Assembly (NCBI GenBank): GCA_964519225.1
Contig: CAZFJK010000002.1
Location: forward strand, 56,531-76,530
Reading direction: 5' to 3'
Length of the DNA stretch: 20,000 bases
DNA from: an uncultured Methanosarcinales archaeon
Lineage (GTDB): Archaea; Nanobdellota; Nanobdellia; Woesearchaeales; B54-G15
Shown here: in pieces, positions 7,422 to 19,063 of the stretch
Layout of the letters: every line of letters begins with the position of its first letter
Numbering within the stretch: position 1 is the first letter of the stretch
The notes under the pieces: generated by a model
The model's database searches: none
What the model was told of the DNA's origin: nothing
What the model saw: the letters and a program-made list of their open reading frames with translations, nothing else
Made by a program: the position numbers and the translations under genes

Positions 7422-7695
7422 ATTTAATGGATTGTGCCTGTCCCTTCTTTCTATTGTATTCGCATATATATCTTTGAATGTACCATTCTACTTTACCTGT
7501 CTCACGATTAATTATTTTTGGAAATGGCACTTTTGAACCCTGATAAGGGCAGACCTTTTCAGGACTAGGAAGCCTGCAAATATTTTTTCCGTTGTATTCA
7601 ATGCAGTGAAGTCTACCTTCTCGTTGGATGCATAATCTAACGGTTGGAATAAGTTTTACAGTAAGAGTTTCTAAATCTTGTTTTTCGCCGTTCAT
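7411..7695 (-). CDS. Hypothetical Cys-containing protein coupled to tfb
   Basis: 94-aa ORF whose ATG overlaps the tfb stop (ATGA, 7692-7695); five Cys; no recognised family. Confidence 0.6.
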   Translation of the reverse strand: MNGEKQDLETLTVKLIPTVRLCIQREGRLHCIEYNGKNICRLPSPEKVCPYQGSKVPFPKIINRETGKVEWYIQRYICEYNRKKGQAQSIKFKT

Positions 7696-8627
7696 CTTCT
7701 GCCTCCTCTTCCAGTTTTCTTTTTAATTTTTTTCATTTCTTTGCCGAGTTTTAATTTTTCAAGTAATTCTTTATAGCGATTTCTTATGGTAACTTCAGTC
7801 ACTCCTGCAACATCTGCAACTTCTCGTTGAGTTCTTTTTTCACCTTTTGCTAAGGCAGCTACGTACAATGCTGCAGCAGCTATTCCAGTTGGACCTCTTC
7901 CAGAAGTGAGCTCTGCTTTTTGTGCTTTCTCAAGTATTTCTATTGCTTTGCTCTGGGCTTCAGGAGAAAGTCTTAGTTCTGAAGCAAATCTTGCTATATA
8001 ATCTACTGGATTGCTTGGTTGAACAGTAATGCCAAGCTCTCTGATTATGAAGCGATAGGTTCTACCTATTTCTTTCTTTTCAATATTGCTTACGTCTGAT
8101 ATTTCATCCAATGTTCTTGGAACATCATGCCGACGGCAGGCAGCATATAAAGCGCCAGCAACAACACTTTCCATTGAACGACCTCTTACAAGGCCGCGTT
8201 GAACAGCAAGGGTATAAATTCGTGCTGCTTCTTCTTCTACGCCTTTTGGGAGTTTAAGCAAAGCAGCAACCCTCTTCAGCTCTGCTAAAGCAAGTTTGAG
8301 GTTTCTTTCAATAGCAGTGCTAATCCTGTACTGCCATTTTCTTAGTCTGAAGAATTTATCTCTTTCTTTAGTTCCAAGTTTGCCTATGTCGCTCATTCTG
8401 CCGATTTCTGTGCCGAGACCTTGATTCGGTTGCGTATGGGTCATAGGAGCGCCAGCACGCCTGTGTTTTTCAATAGCATCCTCAGTAGCTCGCCATTCCT
8501 GGCTGAAGTCAATCATTTTATCCTCAATGATTAAGCCACAATCTCTGCAGACGATTTCTCCGCGTTCGCGATCCCAGAACAAGTTTATGCTACCGCATTC
8601 AGGACATTTTTTAACCATTTCGATCAT
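7692..8627 (-). CDS. tfb: Transcription initiation factor IIB
   Basis: Zn ribbon CPECGS...GEIVCRDCG, B-reader EWR, two cyclin repeats (RGRS, PRTLDEI, GRGPTG.AAAALY, VAGVTEVTIRNRYKEL); SD AGGTGA upstream. Confidence 0.98.
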   Translation of the reverse strand: MIEMVKKCPECGSINLFWDRERGEIVCRDCGLIIEDKMIDFSQEWRATEDAIEKHRRAGAPMTHTQPNQGLGTEIGRMSDIGKLGTKERDKFFRLRKWQYRISTAIERNLKLALAELKRVAALLKLPKGVEEEAARIYTLAVQRGLVRGRSMESVVAGALYAACRRHDVPRTLDEISDVSNIEKKEIGRTYRFIIRELGITVQPSNPVDYIARFASELRLSPEAQSKAIEILEKAQKAELTSGRGPTGIAAAALYVAALAKGEKRTQREVADVAGVTEVTIRNRYKELLEKLKLGKEMKKIKKKTGRGGRR

Positions 8628-9779: not shown

Positions 9780-9926
9780 TTGAGTTTAGAAGATAATTAA
9801 ATATATAAATCTTTTTATTTTTACCACTAAAAAATAATAAACAAGTTTGTATGTTTGCGTTTTTAAAAGAAAAAGAATTTTTATAAAGTAAGGTTATTAA
9901 TAAGAAGCAATGATGTTTGTCTAAAT

Positions 9927-10012
9927 GCCGCGGTCGCATAACCTGGTATTGCGCCAGCCTGGAGAGCTGGTGTCCCTTTGGGGACGTGTGGGTTCGAATC
10001 CCACCCGCGGCG
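9927..10012 (+). tRNA. tRNA-Ser (GGA)
   Basis: Acceptor GCCGCGG/CCGCGGC, discriminator G, anticodon arm CCAGC-CT-GGA-GA-GCTGG, long variable arm GTCCC..GGGAC, T arm GTGGG-TTCGAAT-CCCAC; CCA not encoded. Confidence 0.97.
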
Positions 10013-10028
10013 TTAATCACCGTTAATT

Positions 10029-10153
10029 GCCCCGGTGGTGTAGTCCGGCCAAGCATAGGGGCCTCTCGAGCCTCTGACACGGGTTCAAATTAACCCTTTC
10101 CGCTACGCGCAATCGAGTTAACGGAAAAGGTTATGAAAGTCCCGTCCGGGGCA
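10029..10153 (+). tRNA. tRNA-Glu (CTC) with a 50-nt intron in the T-loop (intron 10090-10139, position 59/60)
   Basis: Acceptor GCCCCGG/CCGGGGC, D arm GTGT-AGTCCGGCCAA-GCAT, anticodon arm GGGGC-CT-CTC-GA-GCCTC. The T stem ACGGG/CCCGT is separated by an insert forming a strict bulge-helix-bulge. Confidence 0.93.
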
Positions 10154-10210
10154 TTTTGATTTTACTTGTAAGTAGAAAAATTTTAAAAAAAGATCTTTTT
10201 TCTGGCAAAC

Positions 10211-10594
10211 ATGCTTGAAGCAAGAGTTAAATCTTTATTCGAGAAGATTTGTACTAGTGAGAAAGAAAAACAGAGATTCTTGAGATGGGGATCTGATCGT
10301 GGATATTTTGCTGACATGAACCAGCTTAATGGTATTCTTTCGCTTGGATTTGAAAGGATCAAGGATTTGATTTTTTCGTATTTTTCAGTGTACAATTCAA
10401 GAAAGATTTATACAAAAAAATTGAAACGTGCGACGTTGGCAATTTTTGTTGGCTCTGTTTTAAGTATCGCGAGTTTATTGGCGGACAATGATAGCGCAAA
10501 GAAATTTTTAAGAATCTTTGGATTGCCACTTGCTGCAGCAGGCATTTTAACTGCGCCTTTTTATTACAGAAAATACAAGAAGCATTATGGTTAA
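10211..10594 (+). CDS. Hypothetical membrane protein with two C-terminal TM segments
   Basis: 127-aa ORF; hydrophobic stretches ATLAIFVGSVLSIASLLA and IFGLPLAAAGILTAPFYY flanked by basic residues. Confidence 0.7.
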   Translation: MLEARVKSLFEKICTSEKEKQRFLRWGSDRGYFADMNQLNGILSLGFERIKDLIFSYFSVYNSRKIYTKKLKRATLAIFVGSVLSIASLLADNDSAKKFLRIFGLPLAAAGILTAPFYYRKYKKHYG

Positions 10595-10644
10595 TAAATT
10601 AGATTGGAAACAATTATATTTTTCTTCATAGTTTTAAGTTGAAA

Positions 10645-11643
10645 ATGGCTCTTGATGAGTTTGATTATCCTCTTCCGAAAGAACTTATAGCCCAGGAGCC
10701 TGCGAAAAGAAGGGAAGAAAGCAGGTTGATGGTGTTGCATAAGAACAATGCAATTGAACACTTGACTTTCAAAGATATTATTCGGTTTTTAAGTCCTGGC
10801 GATGTTCTTGTGCTCAACGAAACGAAGGTTTTAAAAGCAAAATTGGTTGGGAGAAAAGAAACAGGAGGAAAGGTTGAGCTTATTGTTGAGGAAAAGCTTA
10901 GTGATTTTATTTGCAAATGCAGAATAAGGGCTACAAAACCAAAAATAGGGAATTTGCTTGTTTTTGACGGTGCGGAAGGAAAAATCATTGATAAAAGGGA
11001 AGATGTTTTTCTTGTTCGGTTTAGCGGCGATGTTGATAAACTTCTTAAGGAAAAAGCGGTGCTTCCCACACCACCGTATATTAAAAAGCCCATAAAGGAT
11101 TATAGCAGGTATCAAACCGTTTTTGCGAAAAAAGAAGGAAGTCTTGCTGCACCAACAGCAGCTTTGCATTTTAGCAGAGATTTACTTGAAAAAATAACGA
11201 AGAAAGGAGTAAGCATAGCAAAGATTTGCTTGCATATAAGCTTTGGAACTTTTTTGAAAGTTCGTGCAGAGCAAATCGCAGAAAAAAGACTTCATAGCGA
11301 ATACTTTGAAATCAGCAAGGAAGCTGCTGAATTAATTAATAGCAGAAAAGGAAGATTATTTGCTGTTGGCACAACTGTTGTTAGGGCTCTTGAGAGCGCG
11401 GCTTATAAGCGAGGAAAGATAAGAGCAGTGAAGAAAAGCACAGAATTATTTATCATGCCTGGCTATGAATTTAAGTCAGGTATTGATGCTTTGATTACTA
11501 ACTTTCATTTGCCTAAGTCAAGTTTGCTCATGCTTGTTTGTGCATTTGCTGGAAAAGAGAGGATATTGAGAGCATACAAAGAAGCGATTAAAAGAAAGTA
11601 TAGGTTTTTTTCATTCGGTGATGCGATGCTGGTTTTCAGATGA
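10645..11643 (+). CDS. queA: S-adenosylmethionine:tRNA ribosyltransferase-isomerase
   Basis: FDYPLPKELIAQEP, SRLMVL, VLNETKV..A.L, PTPPYI, YQTVFA, GSLAAPTAALHF, VGTTVVRALES, TNFHLPKSSLLMLV.AF, YRFFSFGDAML. Confidence 0.97.
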   Translation: MALDEFDYPLPKELIAQEPAKRREESRLMVLHKNNAIEHLTFKDIIRFLSPGDVLVLNETKVLKAKLVGRKETGGKVELIVEEKLSDFICKCRIRATKPKIGNLLVFDGAEGKIIDKREDVFLVRFSGDVDKLLKEKAVLPTPPYIKKPIKDYSRYQTVFAKKEGSLAAPTAALHFSRDLLEKITKKGVSIAKICLHISFGTFLKVRAEQIAEKRLHSEYFEISKEAAELINSRKGRLFAVGTTVVRALESAAYKRGKIRAVKKSTELFIMPGYEFKSGIDALITNFHLPKSSLLMLVCAFAGKERILRAYKEAIKRKYRFFSFGDAMLVFR

Positions 11644-12169
11644 TTTTTTTTGAATAAACGCATCCGCAATAGTTTTGTCTGTAAAGATTGAATTGTTTGC
11701 TTAATGCAATGCTCAGTTCATAGCCTTTGTATTTTTTAAAGTCTGATGAAATATATTTCACGAGCTGGTCCTGATATTTTTTTCCTATTTTATTAATCGT
11801 TTCTGCTGACTTGTGCGGGCTTATTGTTAAGGTTGTTGCGAATGCTTGGAAGCCGTGTTTTTTTGCGTATTCTGCTGTTTTTTTCAGGCGAAGTTCAAAA
11901 CACAGTTGACATCTCTTTCCTTGTTCTGGTTCGTGTTCAAAACCTTTAATATAGCTGTGCCATTCGCTTTCTGTTTGTTCTGGAACTATAAGCGGAACAG
12001 AATAGAGTTTTGCTATTTTGCGCACATCTTCTAGGCGGCGTTCAAATTCTTTTCTTGGATGGATATTTGGATTGTAAAAGAAGAGAGTTATTTTAGCAGG
12101 ATGGTGTTTTAATTTTTCAAGCACTCCAACAGCACAGCATGCGCAACAAGCGTGAAGTAAGAGTTTCAT
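11636..12169 (-). CDS. queH: Epoxyqueuosine reductase QueH (DUF208)
   Basis: LLLHACCACC, FYNPNIHP..E...R, EPEQGKRCQLCFELRL, TTL.ISPHK, LYRQNYCGCVYS. Confidence 0.95.
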   Translation of the reverse strand: MKLLLHACCACCAVGVLEKLKHHPAKITLFFYNPNIHPRKEFERRLEDVRKIAKLYSVPLIVPEQTESEWHSYIKGFEHEPEQGKRCQLCFELRLKKTAEYAKKHGFQAFATTLTISPHKSAETINKIGKKYQDQLVKYISSDFKKYKGYELSIALSKQFNLYRQNYCGCVYSKKII

Positions 12170-12213
12170 TTTGAATAGAAAGCTTTTAAAGTTATTAAGT
12201 TTTATGATTTAGT

Positions 12214-12296
12214 GCCGGCGTGGCGGAACGGCTAACGCGCCTGCCTCGAGAGCAGGTCCCCTTCGGGGGTTGCAGGTTCGAATCCTGCCGCCGGCG
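12214..12296 (+). tRNA. tRNA-Ser (CGA)
   Basis: Acceptor GCCGGCG/CGCCGGC, discriminator G, anticodon arm CCTGC-CT-CGA-GA-GCAGG, variable arm CCCC-TTCG-GGGG, T arm GCAGG-TTCGAAT-CCTGC. Confidence 0.97.
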
Positions 12297-12432
12297 TAAC
12301 GAAGTGAAGCCAAGGCAGGTTCCTGAACAGAGCGAAGCGGAGTGAAGATATCTGCCGCCGGCGTAACGAAGTGAAGCCAAGGCAGGTTCCTGAACAGAGC
12401 GAAGCGGAGTGAAGATATCTGCCGCCGGCGTA
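12285..12432 (+). repeat. 67-bp tandem repeat (2 full units + 14 nt) that re-iterates the tRNA-Ser 3' end
   Basis: CTGCCGCCGGCGTA starts at 12285, 12352 and 12419; the two intervening 53-nt segments are identical. Confidence 0.95.
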
Positions 12433-12436
12433 TTTT

Positions 12437-12451
12437 GATAAAATTTATAAG
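12437..12451 (+). promoter_or_regulatory. BRE + TATA promoter for the Trm112-like gene
   Basis: GATAAAA-TTTATAAG ending about 24 nt before the ATG at 12475. Confidence 0.5.
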
Positions 12452-12474
12452 TTCGATTCAACCAATTTTGAAAA

Positions 12475-12639
12475 ATGCCTTTGCCAAAAGATTTGCTTGA
12501 AATACTTGCCTGTCCTGTTTGTAAAGGCAACCTAGTCGAGAAGAAGAATAAACTTGTATGCAAGAGATGTAAGATCGACTATCCGATAGAAGACGGGATT
12601 CCAATTCTGCTTCCGCCAGAGGATAGGCAAGTAAAATAA
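12475..12639 (+). CDS. trm112: Trm112-family methyltransferase activator (54 aa)
   Basis: Not in the ORF track. Manual translation MPLPKDLLEILACPVCKGNL...LVCKRCKIDYPIEDGIPILLP matches the L.ILACP.CK..L...YPI.DGIP.LL signature. Confidence 0.92.
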   Translation: MPLPKDLLEILACPVCKGNLVEKKNKLVCKRCKIDYPIEDGIPILLPPEDRQVK

Positions 12640-12709
12640 AAAGAACACAGGTCAAATGTATATATAAATTTTAAATCTAAATTCCATATTCTTCAATTCG
12701 CCTTTGAAA

Positions 12710-13783
12710 ATGCATAAAGGATTTGCTGATTTGCCTTTGCACTATGGAAGAGCTCCGAGATGGCTTTTTAATAGAATGGTCAAATTAGCTGGGGCTATAT
12801 CTGAAGCAATAGTATTTGAATACGGAACTTCCACATTTCTTAAAAGAATATCAGACCCATTTTGGTTTCAGGCTTTTGGCTGTGTGCTTGGTTTTGATTG
12901 GCACAGCAGCGGATTAACGACTACTGTTTGCGGCGCATTAAAGATCGCATTGAAAGATGCAAATCTCGGCATTGCTGTTTGCGGCGGAAAAGGTAAAACA
13001 AGCCTGAAAACACCAGAAGAGATTTTGAATTCTGATCTTGGACTTTCAACACAAAAACTTGAAAATCTTGCCTATGCAAGCAGAATTTCAGCTAAAGTTG
13101 ATAATGCATGCATTCAGGACGGGTTTCAGCTTTACCATCATTGTTTTGTTTTTGACGAGCGCGGGAACTGGGCGGTTGTTCAGCAGGGGATGAACGATTC
13201 TTTGCATAAAGCAAGACGCTATCATTGGTTTTCTGAAGATATTGAAGAAAGCATGATTAATGAGCCGCATAGTGCGATTTGTTGCGATATCAGGCTTGAT
13301 AAAGTGCTTGATATGACGTCAAGTGAAAGTAAAGAGGCAAGGGAATGCTCTATGGCAGTAGCGCAAGAGTTTGAACGTGAGCTGAAAAGCAGTGAAATTA
13401 AAAAACTTATTATGCCAAGACATCATGAACTTTACAAATTTCATCTTTCTAAGTATGGCAGAGCTATTCTTGAAAAAATTAGAACCATTGAACCAAAGAA
13501 TTATGAAGAGCTGATTGCAATAAAAGGCGTAGGGCCAAAGACAGTAAGGGCATTAGCACTGATAAGCGAACTTATTTACGGAAAAGCACCAAGTTATAGA
13601 GATCCTGCTGTTTATTCTTTTGCTCACGGCGGAAAAGATGGCTGGCCTTATCCTGTGGATAAGAAAAGATATGATGAGTCGATTTATACTTTAAGGCGGG
13701 CAATAGAAGAAGCAAAACTCGGAAAGAGAGAGAAATTGAAGATGCTGAAATTATTTGATAGTGCTATCCAGATCAGCCCTTAG
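12710..13783 (+). CDS. DUF763 domain protein (COG1415-like) with HhH motif
   Basis: ADLPLHYGRAP.WL..RM, DPFWFQAFGCVLGFDWHSSG.TT, AKVDN...QDG.QLYHH, VQQGMN, GVGPKTVRALAL, FAHGGKDG.PYPV. Confidence 0.92.
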   Translation: MHKGFADLPLHYGRAPRWLFNRMVKLAGAISEAIVFEYGTSTFLKRISDPFWFQAFGCVLGFDWHSSGLTTTVCGALKIALKDANLGIAVCGGKGKTSLKTPEEILNSDLGLSTQKLENLAYASRISAKVDNACIQDGFQLYHHCFVFDERGNWAVVQQGMNDSLHKARRYHWFSEDIEESMINEPHSAICCDIRLDKVLDMTSSESKEARECSMAVAQEFERELKSSEIKKLIMPRHHELYKFHLSKYGRAILEKIRTIEPKNYEELIAIKGVGPKTVRALALISELIYGKAPSYRDPAVYSFAHGGKDGWPYPVDKKRYDESIYTLRRAIEEAKLGKREKLKMLKLFDSAIQISP

Positions 13784-14329
13784 TTTTTCAAGGGCTTTTT
13801 CTCTAAGCTGTCTCACCCTTTCCCCTGAAATACCCATTTCTCTTCCTATTTCTAAAAGTGTACGCTTTTTATGACCGTTCAGGCCGAAATATTCATTTAT
13901 TACTTTTTGCTCTCTTCTTGGAAGGTTCCTCAGCGCATTATAGAGATTGTTTATAAGTTCAGTTTTGTATAATCTTTTTGTTGGACTCTCCTCGCGGCTT
14001 CTTATTAAATTTAGGATCTCTTCGTCTGCGATTGAAAAAGGCTGTTGGGCTTTGAGACTTTTTTTAAGTAGACCTGAAACACTTTTCCAAGCGTAAGTTG
14101 TAAATGTGCTTTGCATATTTGGATTCCAAGCATACCATGCTTTAAGAAGCGCAAGGAATCCTTCTTGAATTAGATCTTCGATAGTTGCAGGGTTTCCGAA
14201 GTTCATTGCTAACATACGCACCATTGGGGCGTATTGCTGAATAATGAATTTCTTTGCTTCTTCTGAGTTCTTTGAGTTTGCATATTCCATGCATTTTCTG
14301 CGGATGCTGGCTTGGTCAGTGGATTTCAT
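13751..14329 (-). CDS. Sigma-70 family RNA polymerase sigma factor-like protein (regions 2 and 4)
   Basis: Region 2: IIQQYAPMVRMLA...EDLIQEGFLALLKA...FTTYA. Region 4: LPRREQKVINEYFGL....RTLLEIGREMGISGERVRQLREKALEKLR. Confidence 0.92.
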   Translation of the reverse strand: MKSTDQASIRRKCMEYANSKNSEEAKKFIIQQYAPMVRMLAMNFGNPATIEDLIQEGFLALLKAWYAWNPNMQSTFTTYAWKSVSGLLKKSLKAQQPFSIADEEILNLIRSREESPTKRLYKTELINNLYNALRNLPRREQKVINEYFGLNGHKKRTLLEIGREMGISGERVRQLREKALEKLRADLDSTIK

Positions 14330-15311
14330 TTTTTAAAACAAACAAACCCTTGTGTTTTTTCATTCCATCTGCAAGAAAGACCGCATTCTGAAAGAGCTGT
14401 TTTTATTTGATTTATATATTTTTTTCTTGAACGTACCCCTACCTTACCAACATAATGAAAAAATCTTCCTTTTGGCTTTAAGACGCGACGAANNNNNNNN
14501 NNNNNNNNNNNNNNNNNNNNNNNNNNNNNNNNNNNNNNNNNNNNNNNNNNNNNNNNNNNNNNNNNNNNNNNNNNNNNNNNNNNNNNNNNNNNCCTACCTT
14601 ACCAACATAATGAAAAAATCTTCCTTTTGGCTTTAAGACGCGACGAAACTCTGCATAAAGAGTTCTGCTGTAGAGTTCTTTTGCGTGGTAGTACTGGGGC
14701 GGATCGTGGATAATAAAATCAAATGTAAGATCTTTGAACTTCTTTATCGCATGTCGAATATCGTCAATAATGAGTTTGATATTTTTTGCGATGAAGAGCT
14801 TTCTTGACCATGGATTAAGTTTTGCTATCCTGATAACATTTTTGTCTTTTTCTACAGTAATAATCTTTTTGCATCTTCTTGCTGCGAGTATTGCTGTATA
14901 GCCCAAACCTGTGCAGCTGTCAAGACCGAGCTCGTTTTTTTGTGGCATTATCAAATTGATTTTATTTCTGGCGTCGCTCCACGGATCTGTGCCTACAACC
15001 CTATGCATGTGGGTTCCGCTTATTTGGATTGTTGGAGCTTGATTTAAGCCGTAGGTGACAAGTTTGTAAAACAAGTTTGTTTTGGGAGAGTATAGTTGAA
15101 TCTTTTCTAATTTTCCTTTTTTGAAGATAAACACAGAAAACTTTCCTTTCTTAACTATCTTTTCAATTATTTGGAATGGAATTTTGTCTTGGTTGATTTC
15201 GATGCAATCTGAATAGTATTTTGGTTTGATACGTGTTAATCCTAGGTCAAGTGAAATCGTCGATCTTTTCTTTAAAAGTTCTTTAGCTACAAAACCTGTT
15301 AAATAAATCAT
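14326..15311 (-). CDS. Predicted archaeal SAM-dependent methyltransferase (COG2521-like); interrupted only by the scaffold-gap artefact, 276 aa when collapsed
   Basis: PTIQISGTHMH, LDSCTGLGYTAI, TVEKD.NV..IA..NPWS, FDFIIHDPP, ELYS..LY.EF.RVLKP.G.FFHYVG. Removing 100 N and one copy of the 55-nt duplicate extends the frame through GVRSRKKYINQIKTALSECGLSCRWNEKTQGFVCFKK to TGA at 14328-14326. Confidence 0.88.
14438..14647. other. Scaffold gap (100 N, 14493-14592) flanked by an identical 55-nt duplication
   Basis: 14438-14492 equals 14593-14647 (CCTACCTTACC...GACGCGACGAA). Confidence 0.95.
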
Positions 15312-15329
15312 ATTAGTTCTTCTTGACCC

Positions 15330-15818
15330 TTAAACTTTTACCTGACTCGTTTTTGCAAGTTCAATAAATTTTTCTGACATTCGTTCTATGCGATCGTTAA
15401 GTTCTTTGAGCTGTTCGAGTAAAGTTTCGATAGTTACTGCTGCATTCCACCCTTTGTCAAGTACTTTTCCTTCTGCTTTCCTTGCCTCTTCGATTGCTCT
15501 CTTTTCCTTTGAAATTTCTTCTGCTTTTCTTAGTGCAGTGCTTAGTTTTTGCTTCAAATCGTTGAGCATCTTCCTTGCTATGTCGCCAGATAGCTCCTCT
15601 ATTGCGTTTTTTAGTACGGTTTCATCGATGTTTATGCTCTTTAAGTCGTCGATCAATGAACGAATTTTGTTGAGAATCTCTTCTTCTTTTTCAAGCAACT
15701 CTTTGTCTGTTCTCAATGTAACTAGTTCATGTTGCTCAAGATGTTTTACTAGGTCAGAAAGCTTTTTGTTTATTTCAAGGGCCTCATTCAACCGAGCTTT
15801 TAGATAGTCTTTCGGCAT
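15330..15818 (-). CDS. Hypothetical coiled-coil protein
   Basis: Glu/Lys/Leu-rich heptad-like sequence. ATG at 15818 lies 2 nt after the upstream stop; alternative start at 15860. Confidence 0.78.
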   Translation of the reverse strand: MPKDYLKARLNEALEINKKLSDLVKHLEQHELVTLRTDKELLEKEEEILNKIRSLIDDLKSINIDETVLKNAIEELSGDIARKMLNDLKQKLSTALRKAEEISKEKRAIEEARKAEGKVLDKGWNAAVTIETLLEQLKELNDRIERMSEKFIELAKTSQVKV

Positions 15819-15820
15819 TT

Positions 15821-16369
15821 TTATGCGAATACCTTCTTTATTTTTTTGAGTTCGTTCCAAGCAAGTGCAAGTTCTTTTTGGAGAAGTTCATCTTTTACTA
15901 ACGTCTTGTTAATTCTAATTGCGCTTCTAAGATAAGTAGATATCTGTTTAAGATCATCTTCGAAAACTCCTCCTTTTGATTTAATTAAGTCAATTATTTC
16001 TTTGATGTTACGCCCGAGCAAGACCGCACTACTCTCTCCTGATTCTATTAAGGGTATGACCTTTTGCCATACAAGTTCGATGTAATGAATAAAACGATTT
16101 TTTTCTTTAAGCTCGTTCCAAAGTTCTCTTAATATTTTTTCAAGTAAGTTCTTTAAAAGAAGAATTTTGGCTGATTCGCCGTGCCGTCGAATGAATTCTT
16201 TTACCTTATCGAGCGCATGATTCATTAATTGAATTTTTTTTGAAACGTGTTTCTCTTTTCGCACATTATTTATTGCTTCGAGCACACCACTTATGCATGT
16301 TGATTCGGTACTTCTAAAAATATCAACTGCAACTTTTATGGCAGATTGTATTGTGTTTGTTATCCCCAT
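15821..16369 (-). CDS. Hypothetical alpha-helical protein
   Basis: 182-aa ORF with a TATA-like AACAAAACTTATATAG about 22 nt upstream (16391-16406). Confidence 0.78.
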   Translation of the reverse strand: MGITNTIQSAIKVAVDIFRSTESTCISGVLEAINNVRKEKHVSKKIQLMNHALDKVKEFIRRHGESAKILLLKNLLEKILRELWNELKEKNRFIHYIELVWQKVIPLIESGESSAVLLGRNIKEIIDLIKSKGGVFEDDLKQISTYLRSAIRINKTLVKDELLQKELALAWNELKKIKKVFA

Positions 16370-16522
16370 GCTTGGAATAGATTTAACTAACTATATAAGT
16401 TTTGTTATTCTAAATTTTATAACTTTCTACTTCGAATTGCTTATGTAAAAACACTACAAGAAGGAAAAAATTAATTATCTCTAAAAAAACCTTTTTATAC
16501 TTGGGCTTTTGGAAAACAACAT

Positions 16523-19063
16523 ATGGACGAAAAAGAACTTAAAAAGAAACTTAAAGAGGCTGCTTCAAAAAATCCAGAGAAATTTTATGCTGTGAAAGTT
16601 CTGAAAGCAGAAGGTTTTACAAGAAAGCGATGCGAGAAATGCGGAACTTATTTCTGGACTGCTGATGAAAAACGAAAACTTTGCGGAAATCCTTTTTGTT
16701 CAGGCGGTTATGGATTTATCGGAGAAAGTCCTGCAAAGAAAAAATACGATTATATTGAATTATGGAATACGTTTTCAGACATGTTCATAAAACTCGGTTA
16801 CACACCAATAAAGAGATATCCTGTTGTTGCTAGGTGGAGAAATGATGTTGATTTTGTTCAAGCAAGCATATATGATTTTCAGCCGTATGTTGTTAGTGGA
16901 GAAGTAGAGCCGCCAGCAAATCCTTTAGTTGTTCCGCAGTTTTGCTTGAGATTTAATGATGTTGATAATGTTGGAATAACTTCTGCACATTTTACTGGTT
17001 TTGTGATGATAGGTCAGCATGCATTTGTGCCGCAAGCAAAATATGATCAGGAAAAGTACTTTAGCGATATTCTTCAATGGCTGACTAAAGGCCTCGGCTT
17101 AGAGCATAAAGAAATTCAGTTTCATGAAGATAGTTGGGCTGGTGGTGGAAATTTGGGGCCATGCATGGAATTCTTTAGCAGAGGCATAGAACTTGGAAAT
17201 CAAGTTTATATGTGGTACAAGGTTAAAGGAGCCGGCTGGGAAGATTTGAATATAAAAGTTCTTGATATGGGGATGGGACATGAAAGAAATTGCTGGTTCA
17301 GTCAAGGGAGTGCTACGATTTATGATGCGACTTTCCCTAGTGTAATGAAAAAATTATACAAGCTGGTTGGTTTGAAGCCAGATGCTGAACTGATGAAGAG
17401 ATTTCTTCCACTTTCTTCTTATTTGAATCTTGATGAAACACAAAACATTGAAAAGACATGGCGCTTTGTTGCTAAGAAGCTTGATCTTGATGTTGAAGAA
17501 CTTAAGAAGAAAATCCTTCCTTTAGCTGCACTGTACAGCATTGCAGAGCACAGTCGGAGTTTGCTTGTTGCTTTCAGCGACGGAGCATTGCCGAGCAACA
17601 GCGGAGGCGGCTATAATCTGAGAATGATCTTAAGAAGAGCGCTAAGTTTTATTGAGAAATACAATTGGCCAATTAATCTTTATGAAGTATGTGAATGGCA
17701 TGCTGATTATCTGAAAAAGCTGTTTCCAGAATTGAAAGATAATCTTGAAATTGTTAGGAAAATTATTGATGTTGAAAAAGCGAAGTATAAAGCAACAAGG
17801 CAAAAGGTAAGAAGCATAGTTGAAAATATCGTTAAGAGGAGAGAAGTGATTGATGAAAAAACATTGATCGGATTGTATGACAGCCAAGGCATAACACCAG
17901 AGCTTGTAAAAGCAGAAGCTGAAAAACAAGGTGTTGAGGTTAAAATTCCTGAAAATTTCTATGCAAGGGTCTCTGCAATGCATGAAAATCTTGAAGCGCC
18001 AAGAAGAATGGAAGAGAAAAAAGAAATTGAATTTCCTATTGCTGATTTGCCAGAAACAAAGCTACTTTATCTCGATGATTATGAGAAAGTTGATTTTGAA
18101 GCAAAGGTTTTGAAAATTTTTGATCATGTTGTAGTACTTGATAGAACTGTTTTTTATCCTACTAGTGGTGGACAAGAACATGATACCGGCAAGCTAAATG
18201 ATCAGGAAGTGGTTGATGTTTTTAAGCAAGGAAGTGTTGTTTTGCATAGGTTGGCTGCTCTTCCAAAGAGTAAGGAAGGCGATATTGTTAAGGGCGAAGT
18301 AGATTTTGAAAGAAGAAAAATGCTTACGCAGCATCATACAGCAGCACATATCTTAAATTCTGCTGCAAGGAGAGTACTTGGAAAGCATGTAAACCAAGCA
18401 GGTGCAAAGAAAAGTGTTTGGAAAGCTCATCTAGATATAACTCATTTTGCTAGTTTAACGCCAGAAGAAGTTAAAGCGATCGAACGCGAAGCCAACGAGA
18501 TTGTGCAGGAGGATATAAAGATTCATACTTTTCTTATGCCAAGGACAGAAGCAGAGCAGAGGTTTGGCATGACTATTTATCAGGGTGGAGCTGTTCCTGG
18601 AAAGCAGTTGCGAATAGTAGAGATTCCTTCTGTTGATGTTGAAGCGTGCGGTGGAACTCATTTGCATAGCACTGGCGAAGCTAGAAAAATTAGAATTATA
18701 AAAACGACAAAGATACAAGACGGAGTTATAAGGCTTGTGTATGTTGCAGGAAAGGCAGCCGAGCAATTCGAGGCTGAAGAAGAAAAACTTGTTGATGAAA
18801 TTGCTTCACTGCTTAAGTGCTTTAGATTCCAGATTCCATACAGGGCAAAAGAATTGTTTGAAAAATGGAAGACGGTTGTTAAAAAGAAAAAGCAGATTCC
18901 CCAAGAGGAAGCAAAGCTTAAAGCAGGAGGCGAATTCAAAGGAAGCAATGCTGAATTGCTTGAAGAAACTGCAAAAGCACTTAAGACACAAAAAGATTTT
19001 ATAATCAATACGATAAAGCGTTTCTTGAAAGAATTAAAAGAAAAAGGTTATGAGGTGGTTTGA
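16523..19063 (+). CDS. alaS: Alanine--tRNA ligase, archaeal type, with shortened C-terminus
   Basis: Archaeal N-terminal GF.RK.C..CG.YFWT, YPVVARWR.D, ASIYDFQP, PPANPL...Q.C.RF.D.DNVG, W.GGGN.GP, GYNLR; editing domain HTAAH and EACGGTH. Confidence 0.97.
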   Translation: MDEKELKKKLKEAASKNPEKFYAVKVLKAEGFTRKRCEKCGTYFWTADEKRKLCGNPFCSGGYGFIGESPAKKKYDYIELWNTFSDMFIKLGYTPIKRYPVVARWRNDVDFVQASIYDFQPYVVSGEVEPPANPLVVPQFCLRFNDVDNVGITSAHFTGFVMIGQHAFVPQAKYDQEKYFSDILQWLTKGLGLEHKEIQFHEDSWAGGGNLGPCMEFFSRGIELGNQVYMWYKVKGAGWEDLNIKVLDMGMGHERNCWFSQGSATIYDATFPSVMKKLYKLVGLKPDAELMKRFLPLSSYLNLDETQNIEKTWRFVAKKLDLDVEELKKKILPLAALYSIAEHSRSLLVAFSDGALPSNSGGGYNLRMILRRALSFIEKYNWPINLYEVCEWHADYLKKLFPELKDNLEIVRKIIDVEKAKYKATRQKVRSIVENIVKRREVIDEKTLIGLYDSQGITPELVKAEAEKQGVEVKIPENFYARVSAMHENLEAPRRMEEKKEIEFPIADLPETKLLYLDDYEKVDFEAKVLKIFDHVVVLDRTVFYPTSGGQEHDTGKLNDQEVVDVFKQGSVVLHRLAALPKSKEGDIVKGEVDFERRKMLTQHHTAAHILNSAARRVLGKHVNQAGAKKSVWKAHLDITHFASLTPEEVKAIEREANEIVQEDIKIHTFLMPRTEAEQRFGMTIYQGGAVPGKQLRIVEIPSVDVEACGGTHLHSTGEARKIRIIKTTKIQDGVIRLVYVAGKAAEQFEAEEEKLVDEIASLLKCFRFQIPYRAKELFEKWKTVVKKKKQIPQEEAKLKAGGEFKGSNAELLEETAKALKTQKDFIINTIKRFLKELKEKGYEVV

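Follow-up and report, generated by a model that had tools for sequence, protein, structure and literature searches.

A minimal, divergent two-domain sigma-70 gene in a small-genome DPANN-type archaeon

Transcription initiation by TBP, TFB and TFE in archaea and by sigma factors in bacteria are textbook opposites, and a sigma-70 gene lying among archaeal genes raises the question of whether it belongs to the archaeon and what its product could do there. We examined such a gene in a 20,000-nucleotide stretch of archaeal DNA (the window; G000:C2:56531-76530), in which an open reading frame (ORF) on the minus strand, at 13751-14329 and with an ATG start, encodes a 192-residue protein composed of sigma2, a short linker and sigma4. 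An earlier note, written from the sequence alone, had located this ORF and quoted its sigma motifs (EDLIQEG...ALLKA, FTTYA and TLLEIGREMGISGERVRQLREKALEKLR); both the placement and the motifs were recovered. It is almost certainly a true chromosomal gene of a DPANN-type archaeon with a small genome, encoding a minimal sigma-70 protein without sigma3 and region 1.1, and constitutes one divergent lineage of the sigma factors reported from DPANN.

The novelty that the earlier note implied for a sigma factor in an archaeon did not hold, as sigma-70 genes (fam00359) were described in DPANN by Castelle et al. (2021, Front Microbiol, PMC8204110), where they are called "particularly prevalent in Woesearchaeota". 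The passages of that paper on these genes exclude mis-binning, report that anti-sigma factors were not found and describe the mechanism as "unclear". A literature search on sigma factors in DPANN, Woesearchaeota, Pacearchaeota and Nanoarchaeota returned no report besides this one. Known since 2021, then, is the occurrence of sigma-70 in DPANN, and new here is a minimal, divergent two-domain copy. Sigma genes persist in hundreds of small archaeal genomes that have no bacterial polymerase, a finding in print since 2021 without a mechanism, and the present protein offers a useful test object, with 192 residues in two domains, its DNA-reading and core-binding helices intact and its melting apparatus gone. 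If it binds the archaeal polymerase, it would show the grafting of a foreign initiation factor onto the machinery of another domain of life; if it binds DNA only, it would show how a sigma factor can dwindle to an ordinary regulator. Both outcomes are compatible with the evidence presented here.

Domain content and chromosomal setting of the gene

Both halves of the protein were recognized by Pfam, as the earlier note had expected from the motifs. Sigma70_r2 matched residues 30-96 (14042-14242, minus strand) with 43.7 bits against a cut-off of 24, and Sigma70_r4 matched residues 132-185, including the region 4.2 helix-turn-helix (13775-13936, minus strand), with 54.4 bits against 24.1; both regions are also supported by the RpoD alignment, the conserved family columns and the comparison with the closest relative, P0002, described below. 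The linker between sigma2 and sigma4 spans roughly 35 residues. TIGR02937 of NCBIfam matched with 98.1 bits against a cut-off of 42.9, aligning model positions 4-163 of 165, and PHROG 351, "RNA polymerase sigma factor", matched at E 1.7e-28. Pfam gave nothing beyond these two domains in the 192-residue protein: Sigma70_r3 and Sigma70_r1_1 had no match, in agreement with the absence of region 1.1 proposed earlier, and Sigma70_r1_2 had none, even though residues 1-29 precede region 2. Region 4 is of the PF04545 type, with no match to PF08281, the region 4 of extracytoplasmic function (ECF) sigmas, at E <= 0.01. The halves of the protein align to the PDB sequences of RpoS, SigA, RpoD and FliA; relative to RpoS, some 74 residues of region 3 are missing between the two matched blocks. 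The NCBIfam subfamily models, including those for RpoH, SigB/F/G and the sporulation sigmas, all scored far below their cut-offs, the best being FliA, cyanobacterial RpoD and RpoS (78, 77 and 71 bits against cut-offs of 190-385), and NCBIfam thus assigns the protein at the superfamily level only. In the ESM Atlas, the model of the 91% identical relative P0002, a partial stand-in for the 192-residue protein (pLDDT 0.71, pTM 0.44), has sigma-factor clusters as its nearest neighbors by features and by structure.

The genome harboring the window is an assembly of 869 kb in 53 contigs, 97% complete with 1.6% contamination. The sigma gene shares its scaffold with genes for TFB, an archaeal-type alanyl-tRNA synthetase, ribosomal protein S15/S13e and an archaeal ATPase_2 protein. 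The large polymerase subunits of the genome are archaeal only (a split Rpo2 and an 867-residue Rpo1N on C8), nothing reached the cut-offs for bacterial rpoB or rpoA in a profile search of the genome, and Sigma70_r2 matched once. In these respects the locus resembles the DPANN sigma-70 genes as presented in the relevant passages of PMC8204110, which likewise lie in small archaeal genomes with initiation of the TBP/TFB/TFE type, without a bacterial polymerase and with no anti-sigma gene nearby. The composition of the gene is that of its genome, with a GC content of 38.7% against 36.9 +/- 2.8% and a GC content at third codon positions of 34.7% against 31.3 +/- 4.4%; its codon-use score falls at the 9th percentile among ORFs of at least 200 residues, which is unremarkable for a short gene.

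An independent metagenome contig from another sample, L030 (7,056 bases, about 90% DNA identity), is collinear with the window over its whole length of 7 kb and carries, in order, the genes for a 176-residue protein, a methyltransferase, the sigma protein, DUF763, a tRNA, QueH, QueA, two proteins of no assigned family and TFB. Its sigma protein also has 192 residues and is 91% identical to that of the window. Among the Logan contigs of run X1, record 1 spans DUF763 into sigma and record 6 spans sigma into the methyltransferase, so that both edges of the gene are bridged, and a contig of 1,930 bases from X5, a study other than that of X1-X3, carries DUF763 and sigma with 137 differences (about 92% identity).

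One feature of the assembly would suit an artefact of assembly or binning, in which a bacterial or phage fragment was joined to archaeal DNA: a run of 100 N at 14493-14592, which begins 164 nt upstream of the sigma start, inside the methyltransferase gene. Depth is also low, at about 6-9x, and the Logan contigs are fragmented. Nonetheless, we consider such an artefact hardly credible. The run lies between two exact 55-nt copies (14438-14647 in all), and because X1 and X3 contigs run straight from 14437 to 14593, skipping exactly the 100 N and one 55-nt copy, the gap is a scaffolding artefact and not a chimeric join. With the gap removed, the methyltransferase frame is continuous through the junction and matches the homolog in L030, an uninterrupted protein of 276 residues; L030, from its separate sample, has the same gene order with no gap, and the bridged gene edges and the X5 contig point the same way. 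The suggestion that the gene is resident rather than a contaminant is therefore borne out by the synteny with L030, the bridging of both edges, the fit in composition, the purifying selection described below, the absence of a bacterial core polymerase and the archaeal markers on the scaffold.

Distribution and relatives of the sigma protein

Of 61 same-order genomes, 27 have a Sigma70_r2 match above the cut-off (28 at E <= 0.001), among them the closed genome G017 and the near-closed G029; in a phylum-wide sample of 401 high-quality genomes the number is 156. The 401-genome tallies include genomes flagged as unpublished (G113, G122, G183, G244 and G335 in the same-order set, G113 and G501 in the phylum set). 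None of the four archaeal control genomes gave a match. The bacterial rpoB cut-off was reached by none of the 61 same-order genomes and by all ten bacterial controls. A genome of the same genus, G001 (81% complete), has no sigma match and also lacks DUF763; it is uninformative on the absence of sigma because the region is not assembled there.

Within this wide distribution the protein of the window stands apart. A search of 1.84 billion protein representatives identified only P0002 (91% identity) below E 1e-30, the next match being 29% identical, and a search of 5.8 billion proteins gave the same picture; all relatives other than P0002 are at most 37% identical. The best non-self matches in 401 same-order genomes were 26-30% identical, the top one in the unpublished G122. 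Most sigma copies extracted from the order are RpoD-like proteins of 211-737 residues with regions 1.2-4, and these score 23-54 bits against the sigma of the window. In a FastTree phylogeny of 195 sequences and 175 columns, from which proteins longer than 800 residues, nine rows with less than 70% column coverage, the duplicate L039 and L037 (from the unpublished G122) were excluded, the protein and P0002 share a branch of 0.95 substitutions per site, outside the same-order RpoD-like genes and sister to P0032 (support 0.85). The deeper nodes are weak, and therefore no donor is claimed. P0032 has 467 residues (its cluster mate P0181 has 635), with two matched stretches of Sigma70_r2 and two of Sigma70_r4, and appears to be a tandem double sigma. 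The same loose group contains a two-domain protein of 207 residues named [quoted passage not shown] by NCBI. Short sigma forms occur elsewhere in the phylum (19 ORFs from 34 fetched loci), the best of them being 25-28% identical to the sigma of the window, and no clade shared with it was shown among these ORFs. Judged by these comparisons, the gene is a divergent lineage, isolated among DPANN sigma-70 genes.

The sigma genes of relatives lie in archaeal surroundings. In 12 fetched neighborhoods they are found among archaeal housekeeping genes, with one exception. The sigma gene of the closed genome G017 adjoins S15/S13e, and in G095 (L086, G095:C5) a gene for a 441-residue sigma immediately precedes the S13-S4-S11-Rpo3-L18e-L13-S9 cluster on its strand. 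G040 (L082, G040:C3) carries four tandem sigma paralogs of 287-684 residues beside exosome, SBDS and deoxyhypusine synthase genes, two of which match the region 1.1 model, the first with a score over the Pfam cut-off and the second under it. Other sigma genes stand beside SUI1, diphthamide synthase, RIO kinase, Rpp14 or CDC48. The exception, in G347 (L085, G347:C22:38000-47247), is a two-domain sigma of 170 residues, 30% identical, on a contig binned with a same-order archaeon and flanked by ThyX, ribonucleotide reductase, dUTPase, collagen-repeat, ankyrin-repeat, DinG/XPD-like helicase and GroES-like genes, a stretch that looks like a virus or mobile element.

Compared with known classes, the protein shares the sigma-70 family features of region 2, region 4 and helix 2.2, and lacks most of the residues for the -10 element and a bacterial core polymerase in the same cell. 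It differs from the mostly RpoD-like DPANN sigmas of its own order, with their regions 1.2-4, in having no region 3 and in its long branch. Assignment to groups 1-3 (RpoD, RpoS, FliA, SigB/F/G, RpoH) is contradicted by the missing region 3 and by the unreached subfamily cut-offs. The bacterial group 4 (ECF) and small two-domain sigmas of about 190-220 residues share the arrangement of sigma2, linker and sigma4 without sigma3, and the nearest Atlas clusters are indeed bacterial proteins of regions 2 and 4 with 189-222 residues, most commonly from Chloroflexota. However, the protein differs from ECF sigmas in its region 4 of the RpoD/RpoS/FliA type, in the absence of an anti-sigma gene nearby and in the absence of a bacterial core, so that the layout fits group 4 and the type of region 4 and the neighborhood do not. 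Small sigmas of tailed phages (PHROG 351 and 1740) are similar in size and two-domain layout, and Uroviricota clusters are among the Atlas look-alikes. They differ in that the best full-length matches are 24-27% identical and no phage genes flank the sigma of the window: the neighbors have no PHROG matches, the window contains no integrase or phage structural gene, and the composition of the gene fits the genome.

Three candidate origins or roles were considered and set aside. Phage as a specific source was rejected on 49 matching records among 50,697; the nine that span 80% or more of the query have 24-27% identity. For a mobile element, there is no integrase, and the direct repeats within 9800-16600 are confined to the duplicate at the gap and a tandem repeat at a tRNA end. 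For a defense system, the PADLOC matches were limited to MzaA, confined to region 4 (41.8 bits), and an incomplete "mad2" match on the methyltransferase domain.

Conserved modules, selection and possible functions

Residues were compared with the E. coli K-12 record of RpoD and with a family alignment of 126 homologs (A1); the pairwise alignment ends at A80=A431, and the matches given beyond that point are its ungapped continuation, with which A1 agrees. Helix 2.2 (DLIQEGFLALLKA, residues 52-64; 14138-14176, minus strand) carries D52-L-I-Q-E-G57 at RpoD D403-G408, with D52, Q55, E56 and G57 at D403, Q406, E407 and G408, as well as L61=L412 and A64=A415, and retains eight of nine conserved family columns; the RpoD residues of this helix are those that we take to bind β′. 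Region 2.3 keeps F76=F427 and Y79=Y430. The residues of regions 2.3/2.4 that presumably read and melt the -10 element (RpoD Y425, W433, W434, R436, Q437 and T440) are replaced by S74 at Y425, inside the alignment proper, and in its continuation by K82 at W433, S83 at W434, S85 at R436, G86 at Q437 and K89 at T440. The loss of the tryptophan dyad, which the earlier note had read from the sequence, is thus supported, and in A1 Ser and Val (S83 and V84) stand where 74% and 85% of the homologs carry Trp and Ile. At an overall identity of about 30%, region 4 still has 23 of the 24 columns conserved in the family, and region 4.2 within it has E170, R171, R173 and Q174 at RpoD E585, R586, R588 and Q589, presumably the contacts to the -35 element, with G169 at R584. 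The likeness to E. coli RpoD and RpoS is therefore residue for residue in DLIQEG of helix 2.2, FxTYA of region 2.3 and ERxRQ of the 4.2 recognition helix, whereas regions 1.1 and 3 are missing, the W433/W434 dyad and nearby -10 contacts are replaced and R584 is Gly. These alignments describe a protein with its predicted core-binding helix 2.2 retained, its putative -10-melting residues largely replaced and a nearly canonical region 4. Bacterial-style recognition and melting of a -10 element would not be possible, because most of these residues are replaced and region 3 is gone.

The ratio of nonsynonymous to synonymous substitution rates (dN/dS) between the sigma genes of the window and L030 is 0.29 (dN 0.041, dS 0.138), which indicates purifying selection as measured on this one pair. 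Between the sigma proteins of the window and P0002 there are 17 replacements, nine in the N-terminal part (residues 1-48), three in the linker (residues 99-131), three in region 4.1 (residues 132-159) and two in the tail (residues 185-192). Regions 2.2-2.4 (residues 49-98) and the 4.2 helix-turn-helix (residues 160-184) have none, so that none of these 75 residues is changed (hypergeometric P 1.3e-4). It is on these two functional modules that purifying selection is concentrated. Taken at face value, this suggests that a DNA-reading helix-turn-helix and a polymerase-docking helix are under constraint and that region 3 and the apparatus for promoter melting have been abandoned.

As a separate observation, the sigma dS of 0.14 (window 13751-14329 against L030 1151-1729) amounts to roughly one third of the values for DUF763, QueH, QueA and a 346-residue protein (0.43-0.53). 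A 127-residue protein of no family at 10211-10594 has a likewise low dS of 0.09. A recent exchange between strains, or constraint at the RNA level, could account for the low sigma dS.

The earlier note had put forward three functions, namely a DNA-binding regulator, a factor docking on the clamp of the archaeal polymerase and an effector acting on a bacterial partner. The explanation that we favor, tentatively and at slightly less than even odds, is that the protein may be a resident sequence-specific transcription factor for the archaeon's own genes, which would read DNA through sigma4 and be unable to melt promoters. The region 4.2 helix-turn-helix would bind a promoter-proximal DNA motif, probably one other than TTGACA because the residue at RpoD R584 is Gly, and the -10 element would be neither recognized nor melted. 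The strict conservation of helix 2.2 suggests that this helix has a protein partner to dock on, for which the clamp coiled-coil of the archaeon's own Rpo1N is the first candidate; there the protein would modulate initiation alongside TBP, TFB and TFE without replacing them. We lean towards such an additional contact of helix 2.2 with the archaeal clamp, although at well below even odds, and it is a shade less probable still that the protein both docks on the clamp and, via region 4, steers the polymerase to private promoters; were this so, the fold of a bacterial initiation factor would work on an archaeal enzyme beside TBP, TFB and TFE. The favored regulator is in keeping with the archaeal housekeeping clusters in which the sigma genes of relatives lie and with the lack of transmembrane-like segments. 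TFE is the usual occupant of the clamp coiled-coil at initiation. It is present in the genome of the window and in 55 of 61 relatives, and the protein therefore does not replace it.

Several results weigh against the favored explanation. A purely DNA-binding factor would leave the strict conservation seen in helix 2.2 unaccounted for. Over 103 aligned columns, the clamp coiled-coil of the archaeal polymerase (Rpo1N, about residues 225-272) has 32% identity to E. coli β′ 238-336 and shares with it the tip (GAPEIII against AAPDIIV) and R241=R278, but it has Ile, Leu and His at β′ R275, E295 and A302, which we take to be determinants of sigma70 binding, and lacks most basic residues of the first β′ helix. 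Because of these differences, a canonical sigma2-clamp interface in this archaeon appears doubtful, and they suggest some room for a bacterial target. No co-evolution signal was found, because the clamp coiled-coil is invariant in 30 same-order genomes with or without sigma genes. Promoters of the sigma70 type are not enriched at 12000-17000 (12 sites against 11.8 +/- 3.4 in shuffles), and 435 upstream regions of the genome contain TTGACA nine times, compared with 14.1 +/- 3.3 after shuffling, with no strand bias. The sigma dN/dS, resting on a single sequence pair, exceeds the 0.08-0.17 of six neighboring genes compared with L030. Finally, the linkage of the gene to the methyltransferase was not seen outside this lineage, at any of eight loci in 60 relatives.

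The same evidence bears on three further explanations. A true sigma-like initiation factor would bind Rpo1N/Rpo2 as sigma binds β′/β and provide specificity for a subset of genes, for example those of bacterial derivation; the conserved helix 2.2 and region 4 would suit it, as would the full RpoD-like regions 1.2, 2, 3 and 4 kept by many DPANN relatives, the two G040 paralogs that score on the region 1.1 model, the absence of bacterial rpoB from all 61 related genomes and the sigma gene heading the S13-S4-S11-Rpo3 cluster in G095. The score of TFB on Sigma70_r4 (27.9 bits) would also fit a topological likeness of the two factor families. We nevertheless regard this explanation as rather improbable, since the copy in the window is without region 3 and most of the residues that would read the -10 element, searches for sigma70-type promoters gave no signal, the clamp differs at the presumed sigma-contact positions, and initiation of the TBP/TFB/TFE type is intact, with TFB in the window and TFE in the genome and most relatives. 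That the canonical β′-binding residues of helix 2.2 are kept while the archaeon's own clamp lacks their presumed partners, in a genome without a bacterial core, would instead suit an effector delivered into a bacterial host, where it would bind the host core polymerase and redirect or block transcription in the manner of phage sigmas; tailed-phage two-domain sigmas are among the nearest look-alikes (PHROG 351 and the Atlas). Castelle et al. raise the possibility, on the basis of cell-wall-degrading proteins (PMC8204110), of an episymbiotic life on bacteria for some DPANN. Genes for the cell-wall hydrolases SLT, Peptidase_M23 and Amidase_2, however, are absent from the 97%-complete genome, and neither the 192-residue protein nor 31 other same-order sigma ORFs contain a transmembrane-like or hydrophobic signal-like segment. 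The operon contexts here and in relatives are of the housekeeping type, and the -10-melting residues required on a bacterial polymerase are replaced. To our knowledge, all known DPANN hosts are archaea, and we consider delivery into a bacterium very unlikely.

We place equally little weight on a functionless or decaying remnant of an old transfer, or on reuse unrelated to transcription. The patchy distribution over order and phylum, the dN/dS above that of the neighbors and the long branch with one close relative among 1.84 billion representatives would be expected of such a gene, and a search for sequencing runs containing 12704-14492 listed no RNA run. Against this, the frame is intact in two lineages about 10% apart in DNA, the replacements avoid both functional modules, region 4 keeps nearly all its conserved columns despite the low overall identity, and the composition has adapted to the genome.

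Neighboring genes and repeats

The sigma gene is the last of an apparent four-gene run on the minus strand. The run begins with a 182-residue protein (15821-16369) and a 176-residue protein (15330-15860, also in L030), both without a family assigned from the ORF list and Pfam, followed by a class I S-adenosylmethionine-dependent methyltransferase gene (14326-15311; Methyltransf_25/31/11 matches). The stop of the latter overlaps the sigma ATG as ATGA at 14326-14329, as had been noted before, and this overlap suggests that translation of sigma may be coupled to that of the methyltransferase. Homologs of the methyltransferase occur at eight loci in 60 relatives, four of which begin at a contig end, and because a sigma gene adjoins none of the eight, the pairing is specific to the lineage of the window. 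Upstream of the run, a divergent intergenic region (16370-16522) separates it from the plus-strand gene for an archaeal-type alanyl-tRNA synthetase (alaS, 16523-19063; TIGR03683, 868.9 bits against a cut-off of 744.7). This region, read by eye, contains an A/T-rich stretch resembling a TATA box (AAAGTTATAAAA), about 45-55 nt upstream of the first ATG, a candidate promoter for the four genes. On the other side, the DUF763 gene (12704-13783, plus strand; PF05559, 438.5 bits) converges with the sigma gene, and the ORF coordinates reproduce the 33-nt tail-to-tail overlap described earlier. The neighbors of sigma are thus the methyltransferase and DUF763, and no anti-sigma gene was found among them by Pfam.

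The earlier note had described the gene as contiguous, free of gaps, with tfb and a tRNA containing a bulge-helix-bulge intron. There is no N between sigma and the TFB gene (7692-8627, minus strand; TFIIB repeats and zinc ribbon by Pfam), which upholds that part, with the qualification that the 100-N run lies close by on the upstream side. The intron-containing tRNA was not found: ARAGORN, also with introns allowed, and Rfam give two intronless tRNA-Ser at 9926-10013 and 12213-12297. A 67-nt unit is repeated in perfect tandem at 12285-12432, beginning inside the 3′ end of tRNA-Ser(CGA), and the last 14 nt of this tRNA therefore occur three times at a spacing of 67 nt. This repeat may have been mistaken for an intron. 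L030 has one unit fewer at this site, with a few changes in its 53-nt insert. The repeat could have been left by successive rounds of integration and excision at the tRNA or be an effect of assembly; an RNA fold of the region gave nothing clear. It and the duplicate at the gap are the only direct repeats within 9800-16600.

Three observations concern other genes of the region. The queA (334 residues) and queH (177 residues) genes, which we take to belong to the bacterial queuosine pathway, overlap tail to tail at 10639-12169, 1.6 kb from the sigma gene. Co-localized queA and queH, counted among "bacterial systems", are likewise reported for DPANN genomes in the corresponding passages of PMC8204110. 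The TFB protein exceeds the Sigma70_r4 cut-off of 24.1 bits over residues 259-293, a stretch that falls within the region of its TFIIB-repeat matches (best stretch 203-290). A kinship between the helix-turn-helix units of sigma factors and the repeats of TFB has been proposed. Lastly, a 54-residue ORF at 12475-12639, between the tRNA and DUF763, contains two CxxC pairs (MPLPKDLLEILACPVCKG...) and, read by eye, looks like a Trm112-type zinc ribbon.

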